Assembly: GCA_039029315.1 (NCBI GenBank) | Contig: JBCCGK010000023.1 | Location: 56,670-120,669, forward strand | Source: Bacteroidota bacterium | GTDB taxonomy: Bacteria; Bacteroidota; Bacteroidia; J057 | DNA: 64,000 bases | Reading direction: 5' to 3' | Shown: positions 2,017-40,138 of the stretch, one piece after another | Layout of the letters: each line of letters begins with the position of its first letter | Position numbering within the stretch: the stretch's first letter is position 1 | Translations under genes and position numbers: made by a program | Notes under the pieces: generated by a model | Database searches by the model: none | What the model was told of the DNA's origin: nothing | Seen by the model: only the letters and a program-made list of their open reading frames with translations

Positions 2017-3759
2017 CTAGTATCCGTTGTTCTGTATGATCGCACCCTGGCTAACCACGATCTGAGAGTTAGGAATGGGTTGATACTCATCTCGTCCTAC
2101 AACGAAGTTCGCATCGTTGAGGTATTCTCGTCGGGCTTTCTCAGTAGAGAAATAGGCATTCAGGGTCTCTTCTGCAATTCCCCAACGGACCAGATCAAAG
2201 AATCGACCTGGATGAGATTCCAGCGCGAGTTCCAATCGTCTCTCCCAACGCAGGATTCGTAAGGCATCCTCTTTGGTCGCGAAGTGAGACTCATTGTACA
2301 AGCCAATCATATACTGGCCTGATGAACTACCATCCGCCTTGACAAGTTTGCCAGTACTGTTCATTGCCCGTTCACGGATGCGGTTGATGATCGGCAAGGC
2401 TTCCAGGTGTCGGCCTGTTTCGATCAATGCTTCTGCCCAATAGAGAAGTGCATCAGCATAGCGCATTTGGTCAGTGTTTCGAGCAGTAGTAAAAAATGCG
2501 ACTGTTCCGCGGAAGCAGGGAGATTCAGGGAGTTCCTGATCTTTGAAAGCAGCATTGAAACCATATATGCCAGGCACGCGAGAGTAGGTTTCATCAAAGA
2601 TTCGATCAGGGACATATTTCCAGGGCATTCCCAGTACAGCAATACTATGAGAAAATCGTGGGTCGAGGTTATTGGCCTCCACAGCTGCCACTCCATCAAT
2701 GATAGGATCCCCATCATAGGTATCAAACATTGGCAGGCCATCAACATCTGTCTTAAAGGCATTGGCCAGATTGACAGAAGGAATGTTGAACCAACAGCAT
2801 CCGTATCCAGGTCCCATGGTTGAGTTCAGCGCATTGGAATGGTTCCCTCTTCCTTCTGGTGCACCATCGTCAATAGAGCGCATGACTGCCCAAACTGATT
2901 CGATTCCACTTTCTGTTTCACACAGAAAATTGTCAGCGATGTCAGCATGTAGGTCAAATTCTCCAGAGGCATCCACTTCTGCAATCAGGTTGGCGGCCTC
3001 ATTCAATTCACTTTGAGTAATAGCGGTCACTTGATGGTTGTCATCCTGCACATAGGCTTTGTAGATCAAGGATTTGGCCAGGAAGAGCTTGGCTGCCCCT
3101 TTGGTAGGTCGCCCGATTTCACTCTGTGTAGCTGGCAAGCCTGCCACTGCAGCACGCCATTCATCTATGATCCATTGCCATCCTTCCTGATCGCTCAGCT
3201 CTCGATTGTGTTTCGTGATATAGTCTTTCTTCTCAATGGTCTCATCGAGATAGACGATATGTTTGTAGAGGACTTTCAGTTTGAAATATGTCTGGGCACG
3301 CAAGAAGTTCATCTCAGCAATTCGCTCTCCTCTTGTAGGCAAGTCTGCTTCGTTCGCTGCTTGCAAGCGTCCCATCGCTTCATTGATTCTGGAAACCAAT
3401 ACATACAAATTCAACCACATCAGGCGATTATTTGTGTTACCTGTTGCAGTCTGTAGCGTTTTGACTTCGATTCGGTGGGTATTGAACTGGTCAGGAATAC
3501 TTCCCCCTCCTTTATGCGCATCTCCTGCTCCGACACTTCCATATGTCCACATGTCCTGGAAAGGAGCGAAAAAGTTGTCATTTCCTTGAGCCGCATAAGC
3601 AGCAATGACCAGTTTTTCAATATTCTCCGGGCTATTCAGGTCTTCACTATTGACCACTCCTTTGGGTGTAAAGTCCAGAAATTCCTCTTGACAGCCTGCA
3701 CTAAAGGTCATCGAGATGATCAGGACGACAAGGAATTTGATATATATAAATTTTTTCAT
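2017..3759 (-). CDS. susD: SusD/RagB-family nutrient-binding outer-membrane lipoprotein
   Basis: 580-aa ORF with lipoprotein signal MKKFIYIKFLVVLIISMTFSAGC. C-terminal RYADALLYWAEALIETGR-type SusD helical signature. Sits immediately downstream of a SusC gene with a 30-bp gap. Confidence 0.85.
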   Translation of the reverse strand: MKKFIYIKFLVVLIISMTFSAGCQEEFLDFTPKGVVNSEDLNSPENIEKLVIAAYAAQGNDNFFAPFQDMWTYGSVGAGDAHKGGGSIPDQFNTHRIEVKTLQTATGNTNNRLMWLNLYVLVSRINEAMGRLQAANEADLPTRGERIAEMNFLRAQTYFKLKVLYKHIVYLDETIEKKDYITKHNRELSDQEGWQWIIDEWRAAVAGLPATQSEIGRPTKGAAKLFLAKSLIYKAYVQDDNHQVTAITQSELNEAANLIAEVDASGEFDLHADIADNFLCETESGIESVWAVMRSIDDGAPEGRGNHSNALNSTMGPGYGCCWFNIPSVNLANAFKTDVDGLPMFDTYDGDPIIDGVAAVEANNLDPRFSHSIAVLGMPWKYVPDRIFDETYSRVPGIYGFNAAFKDQELPESPCFRGTVAFFTTARNTDQMRYADALLYWAEALIETGRHLEALPIINRIRERAMNSTGKLVKADGSSSGQYMIGLYNESHFATKEDALRILRWERRLELALESHPGRFFDLVRWGIAEETLNAYFSTEKARREYLNDANFVVGRDEYQPIPNSQIVVSQGAIIQNNGY

Positions 3760-3788
3760 TTTGGGTGAATTTGATAAATAAAACAGAG

Positions 3789-6700
3789 CTAGAATCCGAC
3801 GTCAATCCCCAGCGTAATTCTTAAAGGTCGAGGATAGTTTCCGGGGAGGCGCTGACCAAATCGCGTTCCATTCGCTCTCTCAATCAGAGAACCGAATAGG
3901 TATGACGCTTCAGATCCGTTTGTGACAGAAAAATAATGGAGGTTTTCCCCTGTGAGATAGGCTCTTAATGAACCAAAAGGTGAGTTGGCAGCTGCCGGGA
4001 GATTCCATCCCAAGGTTACCTGTCGAATCGCGAGGTAATCACCACTTCTGACATCCCAATCGGAGAATCCAAAAGGTCGAGTGCTGGTACTTTGTGCTGG
4101 AATGTGGGTGTCTTTATTTGTAAATGTCCAGCCATTGAGAGAAGCACTTCCTGCTGTTCTACCTGGCGCAAGTCCTCCCAGTTCATTATAATTGGCATCA
4201 CCAGGGATCAATCGTCCCAATGCTCCTGTCAGTTGAATGGTCAGGTCGAAGGCTTTATAATTCATTTGGGAATTCAGACCAAAGTCTACCAATGCTCTCG
4301 CAGCGGCATCAATGTATTCCCGATCTGTAGGCGTAATCATTCCGTCACCATCCAAATCAGCATATTTGAAAGCTCCGACCCGGATTCCAGGATAGGCAGG
4401 TGCAGCGGCCAATTCTTCGGCACTTTGAATCAAGCCATCTACACGATAGACAAACATCGCATTTGGAGAATGTCCAATGATGTTTTGATCTTCTGTTCCA
4501 TTTCCAGGATAAGAAGCCCATAAGTCTTCAGGTAGGCTGGTGATCTTGTCGACATAGCCAGAGAATACCCCACTGATGGTATAGTTGAAATCTCCACTCA
4601 AGGGACTAAAGTATCCAAGTGAGACTTCCCATCCACGGGTTTCCATGTCCGCACCATTGGCCCATCGACTGTATCCATCTCCAAAGTGTCCGATAGCGGA
4701 AGGACGAATCAGGATATCGGTGGTTTGTTTTTGGTACAATTCGATAGAACCGGTGATCTTGTCAGACCACAACCCAAAATCCAGTCCAACATTGATCTCA
4801 GTGGTTGTTTCCCATTTCAGGTCATCATTGCCGGTTTGGGTCGCCAGAAAACCTGATGGAAGAATGCCTGTATTATTGTTGCCAATATCATAGGCAGTTG
4901 CAGCATCCAGGCACAAGGTCTGTGCACACCCACTTCCCCAGGGAAGATAGGTACTCTGCGGTGCATATACAGCCTGATACAAAGCAAATCGGGCTGTATT
5001 TTCAATATCCTGGTTCCCGGTTTGTCCCCATGCAGCACGAAGCTTCAAGTTGGAAAAGGTTTTGCTCCCTTGAAGAAATTCTTCTTCGCTGATCCTCCAT
5101 CCTACAGAAGCTGCCGGAAAAACCGCAAATCGATTGTTCAAGCCAAAGCGGGAAGAGCCATCCCGACGAATGGTGACAGATGTAAGATATTTGTCGGCAA
5201 ACGTATAATTGACTTTTCCGAAGTATGAAAAGAGAGAGAAACCTGTCTGAGATCCAGCAGAAGTTCGTTCTCCTGAAGCTGCTGACAACTGAAAGTAGTC
5301 GTTGTTTTCCAGAGCAAAATCTTTGCCTGAAGCAGAGAATACGCGGAATTGATTTTCAACGGCCTCTGTCCCCGCCAGGACATTCAAGGCATGTTTGCCC
5401 CCAAAATTCTTGGAGTAGGTCAAGGTATTGTTGAATACCAGATTCGTCTGATGAATCTGAGTCAGCCTCAATTCAGCCGTTGTGTTGCTTAGGAAACCTC
5501 TTGAATAGGTTCTGAAAAGGTCTCTGGTGTAAATATTGTCATAATCGATCCCCAGATTGGTTCTGAAGGTCAGCCCTTTAAGGATCTCAGCCTCAACATA
5601 GACATTCCCAAATGCCTTGACATTGTGGATTCGATCATCCTGATTGTCAAAGCCCAGACCAGCAGGATTGTCTCGATCATCAAATCCCGCACCGGGAGGG
5701 CCAGCAAATCTTCCATCTTCCGTCTTTACAGGCAGCATGGGCTTCATCACGCGCATCAGGTTTTCCACTGTTCCGCCAAAACCATCGTCAGACCACTGGC
5801 GCTCACCTTTTGTTACGCCAATGTTTTCTCCAATTTTCACACGTCCGTTGAGGAACTTATAATTAGAATTCAATCGAGTGGAAATTCGCTGATATCCACT
5901 ATGAATAACTGCGCCTGTATGATCAAACAAATTGACCGAGAGGTGAACCCCTCCTTTATCTGTTGCCTGATCAAATGTTACATTATAATCCTGAACGATC
6001 CCTTGCTGAAAGATCACATCATTCCAATCGGTTCCAGCCTCCAAAGAAGAGCCACCATATTCTGTCCCAGTCCAGGTGCTATTGGGATGTCCTGCAGGTC
6101 TCAGCTGATCTGCTTCATCCAACCACTCTGGATAGATGATTCTGTCCAATACAGGCACACCATTGCCTTGGATACCAGGCCCCAGAGAAGGATCATAGTG
6201 CCACTCATACCGATACCGACCGACATTGTCTGGATCCCCACCATCATTGACAGCAGCTTGCCACTGGTTGATGGCTTTTTCTTCACTGGTCATCAAATCC
6301 CAGGGATTGACTATTCTCTCTGTACTGAATCGGACACTGGCTGTGATAGAACTTCGCCCTTGCTTCGCTTGTTTGGTGGTGATGATCACTACCCCGTTCG
6401 AAGCTCTGGAGCCATAGATAGAAGCCGAAGAAGCATCTTTGAGAATCTGAACAGATTCAATGTCGGCAGGATTGAGCCATGACAGCCCCCAGGTTGCCTG
6501 GGTGTTGGGGGTGTTGCTCGCCCCCTGAAATGGCTGTACAGGAACCCCATCTACGATATACAAAGGTTGGTTGTTCCCCAAGGTACTGATCCCCCGTATG
6601 GTGATACTCGCCCCTTGTCCCGGTTGTCCTGCCAGACCTACCTGAACCCCCGCAACTCTCCCCTGCATGGTTTGCATGATGTTGTTGTTCGTATTCCCTT

Positions 6701-32992: not shown

Positions 32993-33144
32993 GTGATAGG
33001 TGAAAGAAAGAAGCTGTCTTCAACTTGTTTACGTTTTTCCGATGATAGGAAAAAAAACAATGAAAAGGCGCATAGGCAAAAGATGAATCCTTTGCACTAC
33101 GGCCTTTCCCGGTCTCCTGATCTTGAATGACTAAGGGTTCTTCC

Positions 33145-34305
33145 TTAGCCTTTTAGGACAGCAAGCGGAGTTAGTTCTACCACGATTTCTGCCAGGTCTT
33201 TCTGGTTTTCCATCACGACATCGATGTCCTTGTAAGCACTGGTCGCTTCATCCAGATCTTTCTGGTTTCGCAATCCGTGGATCACGCCTCTCTGGTTCAT
33301 TAGATCGATCTCATGCTGCAAATCCAATTCTCGCTGGGCCTGCTTTCGTCCCATCTTTCGCCCAGCTCCATGGGAGCAAGACATGAAGCTCTGCTCATTC
33401 CCCAATCCGCGAACAATGTAAGAGTGGGTTCCCTGAGATCCTGGGATCATCCCCAATTCATCTTTGAAAGCTTTGGTTGCCCCTTTTCGGTGGACGAAGA
33501 CATTTTCCCCGAAATGATGCTCCCATGCGGCAAAGTTATGGGCTTTGTTAATGATGTCCTCTCGCTCGAATTCTCCTACAACTTCGGTCAAAGCCTCACT
33601 CATACGTTCCATCATCAACTTCCGGTTCGCCAAGGCAAATTCAATACAATAGTTCATTTCATCGATATAGGCTTGAGATTCTTCAATCTCCAATGGCAAG
33701 AATGCCAGTCCCATCTCTTTGGTTACGGTAGAATGATATCGTGCATTCAGCTTAATGGCCAATTCGTTGTAAAACTTGGCTACAGTATATCCAAGATTTC
33801 GGCTCCCTGAGTGAATCATGATCCAGATGTAGCCATCAGAACCTTTTTGAATCTCAATGAAGTGATTCCCTCCCCCCAATGTTCCGATTTGTTTCAAGGC
33901 TTTGTTGTACCCGCGGCTAACATTCATTAAGGCAGCATGTCCTTCTGGCATCCTTGCCTCATCTTGCTTCTCCGCATGCCAGTTGAATCCCAATGGGATC
34001 AAGGATCGGGCTACGCCCATCACTTTCTTCAACTCTTCTCGGGACACGTCTTGCAGTTCGGTCCGCATCGCACACATTCCACATCCGATGTCTACTCCGA
34101 CAGCATTGGGGATGACTACATTTTTGGTAGCTAATACAGAGCCGATTGGCATTCCATATCCTTGATGGCTATCAGGCATGATGGCGATATGCTTGAAGGC
34201 AAATGGCAAGTTCGCAAGGTTTTTGGCCTGCTTCAAAGCCCCAGGCTCAATGTCTTCCAACCACATTTTGATTGGTCGCTTTTCTGTTGATATGACTTGT
34301 TTCAT
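33145..34305 (-). CDS. rtcB: RtcB-family RNA ligase
   Basis: 386 aa with metal-binding blocks MPDSHQGYGMPIGS, GVDIGCGM and NHAG..SGSRN-like segments typical of RtcB (short form). Confidence 0.75.
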   Translation of the reverse strand: MKQVISTEKRPIKMWLEDIEPGALKQAKNLANLPFAFKHIAIMPDSHQGYGMPIGSVLATKNVVIPNAVGVDIGCGMCAMRTELQDVSREELKKVMGVARSLIPLGFNWHAEKQDEARMPEGHAALMNVSRGYNKALKQIGTLGGGNHFIEIQKGSDGYIWIMIHSGSRNLGYTVAKFYNELAIKLNARYHSTVTKEMGLAFLPLEIEESQAYIDEMNYCIEFALANRKLMMERMSEALTEVVGEFEREDIINKAHNFAAWEHHFGENVFVHRKGATKAFKDELGMIPGSQGTHSYIVRGLGNEQSFMSCSHGAGRKMGRKQAQRELDLQHEIDLMNQRGVIHGLRNQKDLDEATSAYKDIDVVMENQKDLAEIVVELTPLAVLKG

Positions 34306-34398
34306 TGTTTTGAAGGGTAAGGTGATGAACGCAAAGCTGGAAAGACAGAAAGGGAATTGGCGCTTTGCGTCTTTGTGTCTCCGCGTTCATCTTGATGA

Positions 34399-35523
34399 TT
34401 ACTTAGAAAAGATCTCCTTCAACTGATCCACAATCTGACCTCCGCCTGACAGGGAGATGCTGCTGATCTTTTCGGCAATTTTCTCTACATATTCCATCTC
34501 CTTGAGTTTGAAGAGCATGGCGTTTTCTTCCATGAGCTTGGCTGTATTGAGCAGACTTCTTGTAGAAGCGGTCTCTTCTCGTCTGGTGATGATATTGGCC
34601 TGGGCGTTTTTCTGTGCAATCAGTACCCGACTCATGATTTCCTTCACATCTCCCGGCAGGATGATGTCCCGAATCCCGCATGTCTTGATTGCGACGCCCA
34701 GTTCTTCGGCCTTGTCAGCGAGTGCCTTGAGCATAAAAGGAGAAATATCTTCCTTTTTTTCCAATAGTTCATCCAATGTCAAGGTTCCGATAAACTCCCT
34801 CAACGCCAACTGAATGGAGGTATAGAGAGATCGTTCATACACCTTGTTGTCTACCAGTGCTCTTTTCAGATCCACAATCTGATAGATGGTCTGGAAGTTG
34901 ATTCTCAAGGCTGCCTTGTCTTTGGTCAGAATTTCCTGTCCGGGGACTTCCAGTTGCTGCTGTCGCATGTCAGCTTTCAGCACAATGATGGCTTCGGCAT
35001 TCTTCCAGAATCTGTAGATCCCGGCACCGATTTCCCGCTCAAATATGCCATCCCGGAAGAACAGCCCCCTTTCATAGGATTCAATGACAAATGTTCTGAC
35101 AAAAGGAGAAAGCGTAGGCTTCACCAACAGGTTGACATCAATGTTGTCTGAAATTTCAGATACACTCAGGTCTATCTTCACGAAGGAGAAAACCGTTACT
35201 CCCTTCCAAAATGCGTGTTTTCCTGGTCTGAGAACGGCTTTGAAGTTGCCATCCTCATACTGTAGGGCGATCTCATTGTCAGTCACTTCGACCACATAGA
35301 GTTGTTCACTCAAGATGGGGTCTCTCAACAATAGACTCAATGGGAATCTGCTGTTCAGTGGCTGTGTCATGTCATGTCGCTCAATTTGCTCATGGAACCC
35401 CAACCAATAACTTCCTTCAGTAAGGGTTCTTCTGTAGCTCCCAAATCTGGAGACAAGAGCGACTTGACCGGTTGCGATTCTTACTCTGTTCATGACGTTG
35501 ATATAATTGATGGTTGTTGACAA
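34399..35523 (-). CDS. SPFH/band-7 (slipin-like) domain protein with ~170-aa N-terminal extension
   Basis: The C-terminal half has band-7 features (GIRDIILPGDVKEIMSRVLIAQKNAQANIITRRE). It lies 93 bp upstream of rtcB on the same strand. Confidence 0.6.
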   Translation of the reverse strand: MSTTINYINVMNRVRIATGQVALVSRFGSYRRTLTEGSYWLGFHEQIERHDMTQPLNSRFPLSLLLRDPILSEQLYVVEVTDNEIALQYEDGNFKAVLRPGKHAFWKGVTVFSFVKIDLSVSEISDNIDVNLLVKPTLSPFVRTFVIESYERGLFFRDGIFEREIGAGIYRFWKNAEAIIVLKADMRQQQLEVPGQEILTKDKAALRINFQTIYQIVDLKRALVDNKVYERSLYTSIQLALREFIGTLTLDELLEKKEDISPFMLKALADKAEELGVAIKTCGIRDIILPGDVKEIMSRVLIAQKNAQANIITRREETASTRSLLNTAKLMEENAMLFKLKEMEYVEKIAEKISSISLSGGGQIVDQLKEIFSK

Positions 35524-35810
35524 AAAAGAAGAAAACAGACCCGCCAGGGCATTTCGGAGAAAGCGGAACTCTCGTTGAGCAGAAATCTATTAACATCGTT
35601 TCCGATCAGGGGCCTTCGTCATGCAAGATCATAGACGATCTTAGATGCTCTGGCTGCCGAAGCAGAAAGGATCCCAACTCTTTCAGCGGTATCCTGAGTG
35701 TTCAGGGCCTTCCAGAAACTGTCTTTCTACACCGGGTAGTCAGACGGCCCCTTTGGGTGCTGTTTCCTTGTAGGTGGAATTTTTATAGAAGTTTCCACTC
35801 TTCTTGCATA

Positions 35811-35892
35811 CAGCTGGATTAAAAGTCCAGTGCTCTACCAATTGAGCTACTATTCACGTGAGAATAGACGGGAATCGAACCCGCAACACCTG
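35811..35892 (-). ncRNA. tRNA-Lys(UUU)-like element with circularly permuted arm order (candidate tRNA-like ncRNA or tRNA remnant)
   Basis: On the minus strand the order is T-arm (GCGGG-TTCGATT-CCCGT), then acceptor 3-prime strand CTATTCT, discriminator C and a short linker. Next come acceptor 5-prime strand (T)GAATAG (6 of 7 bases complementary), TA, and D-arm GCTC-AATTGGTA-GAGC. Last is a complete anticodon arm CTGGA-CTTTTAA-TCCAG with anticodon TTT. No T-arm follows the anticodon arm. Confidence 0.45.
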
Positions 35893-36175
35893 AGTTGTTG
35901 GCAACAAACGATCAGATAAGCGGCATATGCGTCCTTTGCAGGTTGCACACCATGGAGCCATACAGAAACTCTCATCAGGTCTTTGGCTGTCCGTTTGCTA
36001 CAATACAAATATGAGGAGGCACTGCGCAATCTATTTGCGTAGATAAAAAAAAGTGGCGATTTTTATGAAAATTTTTGGAAAAGGCGGTTTTTGGGCCAAA
36101 AGAGGAGGTTTTTTTTCGTTCCTTGAATCGCACAATACTCGCCTCACTTTTCAAAGAGAGTCAAACCCTTATTCT

Positions 36176-37897
36176 ATGCCAGTCAACAGAAACGCTCTCA
36201 TTCGCTACAAGACCATCGACAAGTGCTTGCAGAACAGGTACAGAAGATGGACCCTGAATGATCTCATTGAGGCTTGCTCTGATGCGCTATACGAATACGA
36301 AGGCATCACAAAAGGCGTAAGTCGGCGATCTGTGCAGGCCGATATCCAAATGATGCGGAGTGATAAGCTTGGTTACAATGCGCCCATCATTGTGGTGGAT
36401 CGAAAATATTATACATATGAAGATCCCACCTACAGTATCACCAATATTCCCTTGACAGATCAGGATTTGGGCATGTTGACCGAGGCGGTGGAATTCATGA
36501 AGCAGTTTCAAGGCTTCTCTCACTTTCGTGGGCTGGACGGTATGGTGCAGAAACTGGAAGACCACATCTATTCCCAGAAAACCCAAAACAAACCAGCCAT
36601 TGATTTTGAAAAAAATGACAACCTCAAGGGACTCGAACATCTGGATCGACTTTATCAGGCCATTATCCAAAAAAGAGCGATCCACATCACTTATCAATCA
36701 TTTAAGGCCCGAGTCGAAAGTACCTTTGATTTCCATCCTTATTTGTTGAAGGAATACCGGAATCGCTGGTTCATTCTTGGGGTAAAGAAAAAAGGAAGCA
36801 ATTTGCTCAATTTGGCTTTGGATCGGATTGTGCGAATCGAAGACACAGAGACCTGGTATCAGGGCGATTCGGGCTTCAATGCAGCGGAATATTTCAAGGA
36901 TGCCATCGGCGTTTCTGTCAGTCCCGGTGTTCATGCAGAAGAAGTAGTGCTGTTTGCCACTCACAAACATGCTCCCTATATTATCACCAAACCTCTCCAC
37001 CACTCGCAACAATTGCTGGAAAAAGATGCTTATGGGATTACCTTCTCTCTGTATGTCCAGCACAATTTTGAGCTGGAAAAAGAGATTCTGGCTTTTGGCG
37101 AAGGGGTTCGGGTGATTTCGCCTGAGCGCCTGAAAAGAAGAATCAAGGATCGAATGGAGGCCGCTGTGGAAAATTATCAAACGGACCTGCGAAGCAGGGG
37201 GCTGGACATTGCCGCAAACAAGCTTCAACACAAAGGGTCCAGCATCCTGAATTATGTCTATACCAGCAGAGAGGTCCGACATATCCGACGCATGCTGGAC
37301 AAAGTTCTGAATAACGGAGGAAAACGCCCACATGCCGAACGGCGGTTGCTTCAGCTTATTCCGAGTTTGAAAACGGTCTTATTCAACAAAAATCTTCGAC
37401 GTATTCTTCATAATATTGATGAACAAGCTTTTTTGACCAAGGCGATCTATTTTGACAAAACCCCTGACGCCAACTGGTTTGTGAATTGGCATCAGGATAT
37501 CCCAATCAATGTCGCAGAGAAAAAAGAAGTGGCTGGCTATAGCAAGTGGACGGCAAAAGATGGCGTCATCAGTGTCTGTCCTCCTGAGCAGATTTGTCAG
37601 AATCGTTTTAGTATTCGCATTCATCTGGATGATGCTGATGCCCAGAACGGTGCCCTCCGAATCTTAGCTGGTTCTCACAAAAAGATCTTTGATGATGATG
37701 AAATTCGCCTGATTGCAGAAAACAGTCTTCCAGTCTTGTGCGAAGTTCCTTCTGGGGGGATTCATTTGATGAAGCCCCTGATCCTGCATGCGTCGTCCAA
37801 GAGTCAGACGCAGAAGCGAAGGCGGGTGATTCATTTGGAATTTGCCTCTGTAGAATTGGAAGGAGAGTTGGAATGGGGGGAGAGGGCGGGGTGGTAA
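36176..37897 (+). CDS. HTH plus WYL-domain regulator fused to a PhyH-type Fe(II)/2-oxoglutarate dioxygenase domain
   Basis: N-terminal DeoR/YafY-like HTH (RWTLNDLIEACSDAL...GVSRRSVQADIQMMR). WYL-like core (FDFHPYLLKEYRNRWFILGV...LALDRIVRIED). C-terminal PhyH signature (WFVNWHQD for the HxD motif, NGALRILAGSHKK, distal VIHLEF). The ORF track starts at 36053; the start at 36176 is preferred. Confidence 0.65.
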   Translation: MPVNRNALIRYKTIDKCLQNRYRRWTLNDLIEACSDALYEYEGITKGVSRRSVQADIQMMRSDKLGYNAPIIVVDRKYYTYEDPTYSITNIPLTDQDLGMLTEAVEFMKQFQGFSHFRGLDGMVQKLEDHIYSQKTQNKPAIDFEKNDNLKGLEHLDRLYQAIIQKRAIHITYQSFKARVESTFDFHPYLLKEYRNRWFILGVKKKGSNLLNLALDRIVRIEDTETWYQGDSGFNAAEYFKDAIGVSVSPGVHAEEVVLFATHKHAPYIITKPLHHSQQLLEKDAYGITFSLYVQHNFELEKEILAFGEGVRVISPERLKRRIKDRMEAAVENYQTDLRSRGLDIAANKLQHKGSSILNYVYTSREVRHIRRMLDKVLNNGGKRPHAERRLLQLIPSLKTVLFNKNLRRILHNIDEQAFLTKAIYFDKTPDANWFVNWHQDIPINVAEKKEVAGYSKWTAKDGVISVCPPEQICQNRFSIRIHLDDADAQNGALRILAGSHKKIFDDDEIRLIAENSLPVLCEVPSGGIHLMKPLILHASSKSQTQKRRRVIHLEFASVELEGELEWGERAGW

Positions 37898-37916
37898 AAT
37901 AAAATATACAAGAAGA

Positions 37917-38156
37917 TTATTCAGGCGGGGAGTCTCTATCTTCCTTTTTCCGTAAACGTTCGATGAACTTGGGACTTCTGGATGTATGGAAAATATCTAA
38001 TATAAAAAGTTGGTTTTCCTGCTTTTCAACCCGATAAATGACTCGATACTGTTTCTGATACGCTGCTGACCTGTATCGGCCATAAGGATCAGGAAGCTCT
38101 TTGCAGATAGGAAACTTAAAAGGAAACTGTGAAAGATGATCACAAAAATCTATCAA
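37917..38156 (-). CDS. RelE/ParE-family type II toxin
   Basis: 79 aa with YRVIYRV...LFILDIFHTS, typical of RelE/ParE plasmid-stabilisation toxins. Confidence 0.6.
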   Translation of the reverse strand: MIDFCDHLSQFPFKFPICKELPDPYGRYRSAAYQKQYRVIYRVEKQENQLFILDIFHTSRSPKFIERLRKKEDRDSPPE

Positions 38157-38248
38157 TCCGATTGTATACTCAATAGATCTTTCTTGACTAAATCTATTCC
38201 CGTAATTAAAGACATCTTCCTATGCCAAGAGTGCCTGTTCAGTCCACT

Positions 38249-38491
38249 TTACTTCCATGAATTCAGTCGCCTTCGAACCTCTTCTGTTGAAAAGACTCTG
38301 CCATCTACGATATCTTTTTCAGCCATTGATATCCTTTGCTGAAATATCTCCATGGACATAGACTCTCCAGGCATAGACATATCTTCGCCAGTGTTTTCGG
38401 TCTGGAGTTTTTGACGTACACCTAATACAACCTTCCATTGTTGACTTTGAGGAAGGGCAAAAATGTGTTTTATAATTTCAGTTGTACTCAT
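38249..38491 (-). CDS. Putative antitoxin / addiction-module component
   Basis: 80-aa ORF immediately upstream of the RelE/ParE gene, with a 92-bp gap. The small acidic protein carries a C-terminal FSTEEVRRRL segment. Confidence 0.4.
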   Translation of the reverse strand: MSTTEIIKHIFALPQSQQWKVVLGVRQKLQTENTGEDMSMPGESMSMEIFQQRISMAEKDIVDGRVFSTEEVRRRLNSWK

Positions 38492-38652
38492 TTTTATTCT
38501 TCACAATTCAAATGATCTCATTAAAGGTACCAAAAAACAGGAAGGATGTCTATCTATCTTGCGAAATGGTTTGATGCACATTCTGCATTTTCCAAGCAAA
38601 CTACTATCTTTCCTCTCTTCTAACTCCTATTACAAAAAACTCACTAACTACA

Positions 38653-39883: not shown

Positions 39884-40138
39884 CTACATCTTTTTCAATT
39901 TCCACAGAATATCACTGAGACCATTGGTCTTGATTTCGTAGACCGTGGCTAGTTGCATGCCCAGCTTGCCTTTGGGAAATCCTTCTCTGGCAAACCATTC
40001 CAGGTAATGCGAAGGAAGGTCGCACAGGAGCGTCCCAGCATACTTGCCAAAGGGCATTTTGTGGCGGACCAGTTCCAGCAAGATTTGCGGGTCTGGCATG
40101 GGAGAAGACGTGTTTGGGTCATCCATAGATCTGCTCAT
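39884..40138 (-). CDS. DUF3820-family small protein
   Basis: 84 aa with MPFGKYAGTLLCDLPSHYLEWFAREG, which matches the DUF3820 consensus. Confidence 0.5.
   Translation of the reverse strand: MSRSMDDPNTSSPMPDPQILLELVRHKMPFGKYAGTLLCDLPSHYLEWFAREGFPKGKLGMQLATVYEIKTNGLSDILWKLKKM

Follow-up and report, generated by a model that had tools for sequence, protein, structure and literature searches.

Regulators of RtcB-type RNA repair have been described in Proteobacteria and in Anabaena. In E. coli and Salmonella, rtcBA is activated by RtcR, a CARF-AAA+-helix-turn-helix (HTH) protein that responds to damaged tRNA (PMC7790460). In Anabaena, a silent tRNA array, rtcB, and the gene for a slipin (SPFH protein) are under the control of the ribbon-helix-helix (RHH) repressor TrcR, and the translational-stress response in which they take part also includes induction of hen1-pnkP; TrcR has been called a functional equivalent of RtcR by its authors (PMC8421152, PMC10272220). 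How non-proteobacterial bacteria sense RNA damage and turn on RtcB-type repair is largely unexplained. In this study, a 64,000-nucleotide stretch of a Bacteroidota bacterium genome (assembly GCA_039029315.1, contig JBCCGK010000023.1, positions 56,670 to 120,669; hereafter the window) was analyzed around a gene encoding a WYL-domain regulator that ends in a PhyH-type Fe(II)/2-oxoglutarate (2OG) oxygenase domain. We propose that this protein is probably the dedicated transcription factor of a divergent RNA-repair operon, composed of a leader RNA with a permuted tRNA-like module and the genes for an SPFH protein and RtcB. What was seen directly is the domain composition, the intactness of the catalytic residues, and the conservation of both the operator and the RNA-repair neighborhood. 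Each part has been described before, be it the WYL regulator, the PhyH enzyme, or the SPFH/tRNA-like/RtcB system. A literature search turned up no paper on this fusion or operator, nor any on control of RtcB by a WYL regulator (the 2016 survey of Burroughs and Aravind was outside its coverage); an initial annotation made from the window sequence likewise knew of no described fusion of a WYL regulator to a 2OG oxygenase.

The regulator gene (36176..37897, plus strand; ATG 36176, stop 37895-37897) is an open reading frame (ORF) of 573 aa. An alternative upstream start (GTG 36053) is possible; position 36176 was taken as the start because all homologs begin at MPxNRN, the equivalent of which is the N-terminus in 80/80 genome-derived regulator homologs. 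Pfam WYL (PF13280) was matched by residues 154-222 (E = 2.7e-13) and Pfam WCX (PF25583) by residues 254-330 (E = 2e-10), where the profile also aligns with the WCX domain of DriD. Together these residues (154-330; 36635..37165, plus strand) form the putative sensor and dimerization core, which is also recognized by PADLOC (WYL model, 1.8e-27; CRISPR-associated WYL models match as well). No NCBIfam model matched the regulator. In a full-length AlphaFold model (mean predicted local distance difference test, pLDDT, of 82 for the whole protein) residues 5-81 fold into three helices and a beta hairpin. Foldseek related the first 340-350 residues to full-length DriD (8tp8, 2.5e-13) and PafBC (9fnd), and a sequence profile built from 49 homologs reached DriD (7u02, 8tp8) and PafBC (9fnd, 6sj9). 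A winged HTH (wHTH) at residues ~1-90 is predicted from these fold and profile matches only. By the order of the Pfam domains, the oxygenase (residues ~336-573) has been added behind a WYL-WCX core that is complete. The initial annotation had recognized a one-component regulator in which WYL is joined to a PhyH-type oxygenase, with which Pfam, the fold, and the intact metal and 2OG residues agree; it had also held that the oxygenase stands in for WCX, which the Pfam match to that domain contradicts. The WYL-WCX-PhyH fusion is far from a rarity, its architecture being shared by more than 120 database clusters (60-90% identity); database entries for the fused proteins bear generic names, for example 'WYL domain-containing protein'.

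The neighborhood of the regulator was compared in 80 loci from a one-genome-per-species sample of Bacteroidota (Cytophagales, Flavobacteriales, Saprospirales, Bacteroidales, Marinilabiliales, Chitinophagales), in which the first 335 residues of the orthologs are 57-67% identical to the window protein. All ORFs of these loci were clustered and Pfam was run on the cluster representatives. In the window, the regulator is divergent from genes for a 374-aa SPFH/Band-7 protein (34399..35523, minus strand; Pfam Band_7, 1.1e-29) and a 386-aa RtcB RNA ligase (33145..34305, minus strand; Pfam RtcB, 1.3e-106). RtcB is encoded divergently upstream of the regulator in 53/80 loci and SPFH in 41/80; less frequent upstream genes encode Ro60/Rsr (TROVE plus vWA; 9/80), PrfH (6/80), the RlaP nucleotidyltransferase (5/80), and Hen1 with Pnkp (4/80). 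At least one RNA-repair gene was present upstream in 68/80 loci, always on the opposite strand. RNA-repair genes are the sole recurrent neighbors of the regulator, and no gene is conserved downstream of it in these loci. This survey of homologous fusions and their neighbors, a step that the initial annotation had suggested, exposed the probable target which that annotation had missed, the divergent tRNA-like RNA/SPFH/RtcB operon. In the closest relative (L084; regulator protein 90% identical), the genes for RtcB and SPFH, the non-coding region, the regulator, and a GFO oxidoreductase follow in the same order with 80-86% DNA identity. No other RNA-repair genes, Rsr/Ro60 included, were found in the 64-kb window.

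Alignment of the DNA upstream of the regulators gave a palindrome, CTRCGCA-GTCTTTT-TGCGYAG, with the general form CTRCGCA-N7-TGCGYAG. A strict pattern (RCGCA-N7-TGCGY), searched within 1.5 kb upstream of the regulator with an estimated chance of ~0.006 per locus, was present in 68/80 loci, mostly 56-60 nt before the ATG. The window has one match to it (36024-36040), compared with an average of 0.05 in 64-kb shuffles, and no second operator; the predicted operator is the 21-bp palindrome CTGCGCA-ATCTATT-TGCGTAG at 36022..36042. Many loci carry an additional copy remote from the regulator, placed 14-115 nt upstream of the start codon of RtcB or Rsr and in the same orientation (for example L001, L003, L008, L010, L012, L024, L025, L027, L034, L037, L041, L063, and L069). 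On the operon strand the sites read CTRCGCAAAAAGACTGCGYAG, 12 nt, TTTG, and then often (A/T)ATCATCAA, an arrangement that is fixed in nearly all of them. The promoter consensus of Bacteroidota is TAnnTTTG. In targets that are protein genes, the ATG lies ~20-26 nt past the TTTG; because of this distance the TTTG was assigned to the -7 box and not to the -33 box. The predicted -7 box of the RNA-SPFH-RtcB operon is accordingly CATATTTG (36006..36013, minus strand), drawn from the consensus and placed by its TTTG 12 nt from the operator. The operator would then span approximately -41 to -21, the position of the -33 element, where no TTTG is present on the operon strand. A comparable design is known for DriD promoters, which lack a -35 element and have the site in its place, at a constant spacing from the -10 element (PMC13004042). 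The palindrome also carries a TTTG on the regulator's own strand; it may be the -33 box of the regulator promoter, which would suggest autoregulation. A sigma-70 promoter scan gave chance-level results, and the sigma-70 model does not apply to the promoters of Bacteroidota. The 5′ leader of the regulator gene itself is variable: in the window (36097-36157) ~100 extra nt separate the operator from the ATG relative to most loci, a further insertion of ~120 nt is present in L084 (5805-5982), and short repeat-like elements occur there in L002, L003, L041, and L061.

The ~650-bp non-coding stretch between the regulator and SPFH genes is conserved. The intergenic region is ~86% identical to L084 overall, with long fully conserved stretches (85.6% over 33101-36096), and is thus conserved as much as the flanking genes. 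We assign a leader RNA of the operon to 35524..36000 (minus strand, ends approximate) from this conservation; no terminator-like site was found on the leader strand before the SPFH gene. The leader contains a permuted tRNA-like module of the YrlA type (T-arm, closed acceptor hairpin, D-arm; 35825..35891, minus strand), which is the single match in the window to our own covariance model R1 (66 bits, E = 1.9e-14). In 24 aligned modules from related loci, 96.5% of the cells are paired and 11/15 pairs have compensatory changes; sliding the partners by 1-3 columns lowered pairing to 41-57%. The model gave 91 matches in 81 sources, all on the operon strand, with at least 44 loci at 45 bits or more; it was needed for this purpose, as blastn with the RNA element reached only seven loci. 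The T-arm on the minus strand is perfect (GCGGG-UUCGAUU-CCCGU) and is followed by the closed acceptor-like hairpin, the D-arm, and an anticodon-arm-like hairpin (CUGGA-CUUUUAA-UCCAG, 35814..35830, minus strand) with a UUU 'anticodon', as read from the sequence and from the alignment to the Rfam tRNA model. The loop of this last hairpin varies by lineage (CUUUUAA, CUCCAAA, CUUCAAA, UUACGUA, CUGUAAA). Two tandem modules are present in many or most SPFH-type loci (L061, L058, L066, L073, L077, L079, L080, L052) vs. one in the window.

The proximity of a tRNA-like element to the regulator gene, pointed out in the initial annotation, was borne out by both Rfam and the covariance model. Rfam YrlA (RF02553) matched 35807-35911 (minus strand) at relaxed thresholds (45 bits, E = 1.2e-8), under its gathering score of 69, and Rfam tRNA matched 35781-35856 (minus strand) with 33.6 bits, barely over threshold. 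A true tRNA gene beside the regulator was considered and rejected: ARAGORN called none in the window, and the Rfam tRNA match is part of the permuted module. The RNA shares the permuted tRNA-like domain with YrlA, from which it differs in its below-threshold score and in the lack of a Ro60 gene in the window. The combination of SPFH, a tRNA-like RNA, and RtcB is a system predicted by Burroughs and Aravind, as summarized in bioRxiv 10.1101/312249, and the window RNA is the SPFH-associated tRNA-like RNA of that prediction, as far as this summary describes it; the likeness to the Band-7/b7a-tRNA/RtcB system (Burroughs and Aravind in 2016; for YrlA, Chen et al. in 2014) is in these three components. 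Two further conserved elements were seen in the leader. A 5′ motif, ACCUGAUGAGAGUUUCUGUAUGGCUCCAUGGUGU (window 35945-35985, minus strand), is common to the distant loci L046, L061, L062, L073, L077, L078, and L080; its hairpin arms appear to covary (GAG/CUC, GGG/CCC, GCGC/GCGC), and it matched no Rfam family. A GAAG-N-CUUC hairpin followed by UAAAAA is conserved 3′ of the tRNA-like modules (window 35770-35812, minus strand; L046, L052, L073, L077, L079, L080).

Several loci have arrays of canonical tRNA genes on the operon strand immediately after the operator and the regulated promoter, ahead of the tRNA-like modules and SPFH-RtcB. The arrays comprise 17 tRNAs in L019 (4037-5814) and L025 (4166-5816), eight in L017 (5061-5861), seven in L010 (2214-3380), L029, and L056 (2313-3051), five in L009 (4864-5412), and four in L015 (3667-4066); the commonest are Pro-UGG, Tyr-GUA, Asp-GUC, Phe-GAA, Lys-UUU, and Gln-UUG. 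By analogy with the Anabaena trn L-array, which is co-regulated with rtcB, the arrays have the look of a reserve set of tRNAs that can be induced.

The PhyH-type Fe(II)/2OG oxygenase domain (37181..37894, plus strand) was matched by Pfam PhyH over residues 402-551 (E = 8.7e-11; profile positions 70-213 of 213). Residues 335-573, modeled alone with 40 free-standing relatives, gave a confident double-stranded beta-helix fold of the PhyH type (pLDDT 94.3, predicted template modeling score 0.91), and the nearest folds are small-molecule enzymes. The WHQD motif (H439, 37490-37492; D441, 37496-37498), GSH (H501), and the distal H538 (37787-37789) are present; the HxD motif and distal His had been read correctly in the initial annotation. 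The three iron ligands, together with R549 (37820-37822), are invariant across 49 aligned full-length homologs. In profile alignments H439-x-D441 falls on the HxD of MysH, H538 corresponds to H264 of human PAHX, and R549 to PAHX R275; the metal triad (HxD...H) and the Arg that binds the 2OG C5-carboxylate are both intact. From these residues the domain is apparently active, a bona fide small-molecule-type Fe(II)/2OG oxygenase. It shares the fold, the triad, and the 2OG Arg with known PhyH enzymes (PAHX, PHYHD1, EctD, SnoK, proline hydroxylases), and differs from them in being minimal (~239 aa) and fused to a transcription factor. It shares 40-53% identity with a large family of Bacteroidota proteins of ~240 aa that are free-standing; these have identical catalytic residues and share several further invariant residues. 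In a library clustered at 50% identity, the best 150 relatives were nearly all free-standing and the fused form made up few clusters; because the fused forms collapse in this way, we regard the fused domain as one conserved offshoot of the free-standing family. The only recurrent neighbor of the free-standing enzymes in a survey of 84 loci is a Na+:dicarboxylate symporter (16 metagenome loci), a weak hint of a carboxylate substrate. In these loci (L116, L118, L119, L121, L122, L127, L138, L143, L145-L147, L151, L153, L155, L162, L163) the symporter gene is on the same strand as the PhyH gene, which follows ~180 nt downstream of it.

Three forms of the regulator were found among the 80 loci, two of which were left unclassified (L016, a 333-aa ORF that is split or frameshifted, and L042, cut by a contig end). 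The long form (43 loci, 563-584 aa, mainly Cytophagales and Flavobacteriales) has the PhyH domain, in most cases with an intact triad; the exceptions are L001 and L033 (H538Y) and L035 and L036 (D441 and H538 both replaced). In the decayed form (18 loci, 519-548 aa) the domain is homologous but decayed: HxD is changed to RQS, KQS, QQL, and similar, and the distal His is gone in almost all. One member of this group, L038 (534 aa), retains HxD but has H538R. The decayed form occurs mostly in metagenome-assembled genomes (MAGs) of Bacteroidales/Marinilabiliales, and also in unclassified Bacteroidota/Bacteroidia and some Flavobacteriales and Saprospiraceae MAGs. The short form (17 loci, 336-349 aa; Spirosomataceae, Saprospiraceae, and others) ends after WCX and lacks PhyH. 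All three forms retain the operator and the RNA-repair neighbors. The N-terminal halves are 61-66% identical pairwise in long and decayed forms alike, whereas the C-terminal halves are 51% identical in long forms and 21% in decayed forms; the former value points to purifying selection on the C-terminal half of the long forms. Since the domain is missing from 17 loci and decayed in 18 while the N-terminal half, the operator, and the neighborhood are unchanged, the oxygenase is regarded as accessory. Judged by these comparisons, it appears to be under selection as an enzyme where intact, yet not required for the core function. Many of the decayed forms belong to lineages that are anaerobic or facultatively anaerobic, and decay in such lineages would fit an O2-dependent activity.

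Taken together, these data allow a mechanism to be proposed. A dimer of the wHTH-WYL-WCX core would bind the palindrome at 36022-36042, and the bound site would take the position of the -33 element of the operon promoter. After its structural relatives DriD and PafBC, the core is most likely a ligand-dependent activator, and its WYL domain would detect a signal of nucleic-acid damage, in this case probably fragments of RNA or tRNA. The regulator would thereby be the Bacteroidota counterpart of RtcR and TrcR, and through the TTTG on its own strand the same binding may also adjust its own gene. The PhyH domain, presumably recruited from the free-standing enzymes, would be an input module dispensable for the core function that most likely adds a second condition: O2, Fe(II), 2OG, or a substrate of its own. 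A role as second sensory input is favored because the nearest folds are small-molecule enzymes, because the residues of the free-standing enzymes are kept, and because those enzymes have no RNA-repair linkage, with the symporter as their only recurrent neighbor. A bolder version would make the protein a two-input factor, in which an active oxygenase is wired into a WYL nucleic-acid sensor, so that an RNA-damage signal is combined with O2/Fe/2OG or with an oxidizable metabolite or RNA ligand, and which stands, as master regulator, above a translational-stress regulon that spans the Bacteroidota (RtcB, SPFH, Ro60, Pnkp/Hen1, tRNA-like RNAs, and inducible tRNA arrays). This is possible, and we put it forward tentatively.

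Several observations weigh against the proposal. An operator in the -33 region is also compatible with repression, and the WYL relatives with known ligand bind single-stranded DNA (ssDNA), not RNA (PMC10853764, PMC11804915, PMC11662680). The regulator has no adjacent RNA-repair gene in 12/80 loci. The operator in the window is 154 nt from the ATG and not ~58, due to an extra leader segment. No significant Pfam HTH model was found in the regulator (best HTH_11, E = 0.21), so that of the YafY/DeoR-like HTH and WYL core given in the initial annotation, Pfam recovers the WYL part. The free-standing PhyH relatives showed no RNA-repair linkage (RtcB in 1/84 loci). Several times, a domain that was retained has lost catalytic residues (L001, L033, L035, L036, L038, and the decayed forms), which implies that catalysis is not essential to the regulator.

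The same target could instead be served by a ligand-released repressor similar to CapW or BrxR, which would leave the -33 region when its WYL domain binds a ligand. The operator overlaps the core promoter, ssDNA-sensing wHTH-WYL-WCX repressors exist (PMC11662680), and the analogous Anabaena regulon is under a repressor. Against this, the operon promoters carry the TTTG of a -7 box yet lack one at -33, a pattern expected where a promoter depends on an activator, and DriD and PafBC, which match best by structure, are activators; neither point is decisive, and we consider repression rather unlikely. The role of the oxygenase can also be read differently. If PhyH oxidatively modified or repaired RNA (the tRNA-like RNA, a damaged tRNA, or a fragment bound by WYL), the protein would be a repair enzyme as well as a regulator. 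Such a function would suit an intact active site in an RNA-repair context and the conserved basic residues R389, K422, K428, and R481, which the free-standing family has in common with it. Of four free-standing relatives that were looked at, one is encoded beside GltX and one beside TsaC and the CCA-adding enzyme; however, these tRNA-linked neighbors are singletons among the 84 loci, in which the dicarboxylate symporter is the only one to recur, and an action on RNA seems unlikely. Alternatively, PhyH might have neither a catalytic nor a sensing role and persist by history as a structural or oligomerization appendage. Its absence or decay in loci where the rest of the system is unchanged, and the loss of single catalytic residues in the otherwise well conserved L001, L033, L035, L036, and L038, would be explained in this way. 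The invariance in 49 homologs of the metal and 2OG ligands and of many residues shared with the free-standing enzymes would not, nor would the retention of these ligands by most long forms or the contrast between long and decayed C-terminal halves, which is a signature of selection on an enzyme; we find a mere appendage quite improbable.

The initial annotation had placed the regulator in a small acquired islet, where it would control a defense or toxin-antitoxin (TA) module. WYL regulators do often control defense, the PADLOC CRISPR-associated WYL models match, and a ParE-like gene adjoins the regulator. This gene (37917-38258, minus strand) belongs to the ParE family by Pfam and has an in-frame TAG (38222-38220); the 79-aa ParE ORF covers profile positions 34-88 and the read-through product 1-88, and the gene is predicted to be inactivated by this stop. 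Its start at 38258 overlaps the end of the upstream ORF (38249-38491, minus strand, 80 aa) by 10 nt, as in real pairs. The size of this ORF and its overlap with the toxin fit an antitoxin, although no match was found in Pfam, NCBIfam, PADLOC, or PHROGs. Of the RelE/ParE toxin and antitoxin described earlier, the former was thus recovered as a ParE-type ORF on the opposite strand with a stop, while the latter belongs to no recognized family. Neither gene, nor that for the GFO oxidoreductase, is present in any of the 80 loci, and the ~760 bp of the window that hold the TA pair (37887-38646) are strain-specific, with no counterpart in L084, in which the operon block is syntenic. The G+C content over the regulator (0.44-0.46) equals that of the surroundings, and the TA stretch alone is lower (0.41). 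The operator does not lie on the TA side of the regulator gene but at its opposite end, towards the RtcB operon, and no defense system is adjacent to the regulator, whose neighbors are RNA-repair genes. The TA pair is incidental and unrelated to the regulator, and the islet reading, which we hold to be extremely improbable, was rejected on the absence of the pair from the 80 loci and L084, the toxin stop, and the ordinary composition of the regulator gene.

Other genes were noted at these loci. In two Aureivirga genomes (L023:5277-5936, L039:5278-5937) a DNA alkylation repair protein (Pfam DNA_alkylation) is encoded divergently from the regulator and replaces the RNA-repair genes. A 749-aa protein with no Pfam match is directly divergent from the regulator in L001 (~3650-5900), L036 (5-2272), and L042 (386-2635), and a 229-aa protein with no match recurs in L020, L040, L045, and L069; both are possible new components of the RNA-repair cassette. 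Unrelated to the regulator, a small ORF in the window (39884-40138, minus strand) matched Pfam QSregVF_b, a putative quorum-sensing-regulated virulence factor (1.6e-31).

If the proposed role in RNA repair is correct, these loci provide a concrete regulon for a whole phylum, with one regulator family, one 21-bp operator, and RtcB, SPFH, Ro60, Pnkp/Hen1, tRNA-like RNAs, and tRNA arrays as targets. In the bolder, two-input version, the protein would be the first WYL regulator gated by an oxygenase and, after RtcR and TrcR, the third independent way of controlling RNA repair. The loci also suggest that RNA damage may be reported by WYL domains, whose sensing has to date been demonstrated for ssDNA. 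The oxygenase fusion is an unusual sensor-enzyme that might link RNA repair to oxygen, iron, or 2OG status, and the repeated decay of PhyH offers natural controls for this idea.

Among known systems, DriD (Caulobacter) and PafBC (Mycobacterium) share the three-domain core by fold and profile and act in the response to nucleic-acid damage; for DriD the likeness extends to a palindromic site at a fixed distance from the downstream promoter box, over a missing upstream element (PMC13004042). Both, however, sense ssDNA and control DNA-damage genes, while the regulator described here faces RNA-repair genes, has an extra oxygenase, and is ~14% identical to them. BrxR and CapW, the defense-associated WYL repressors, have the same wHTH-WYL-WCX architecture but differ in setting, as no defense system adjoins this regulator. 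RtcR resembles it in genome organization, its gene being divergent from an RtcB operon in which Ro60 and the tRNA-like YrlA RNA may also be present (PMC7790460), but belongs to an unrelated family, that of sigma-54 enhancer-binding proteins with a CARF sensor and no oxygenase. The TrcR regulon combines the same kinds of genes as the Bacteroidota loci, under a different regulator family, with a different operator, and in a different phylum.

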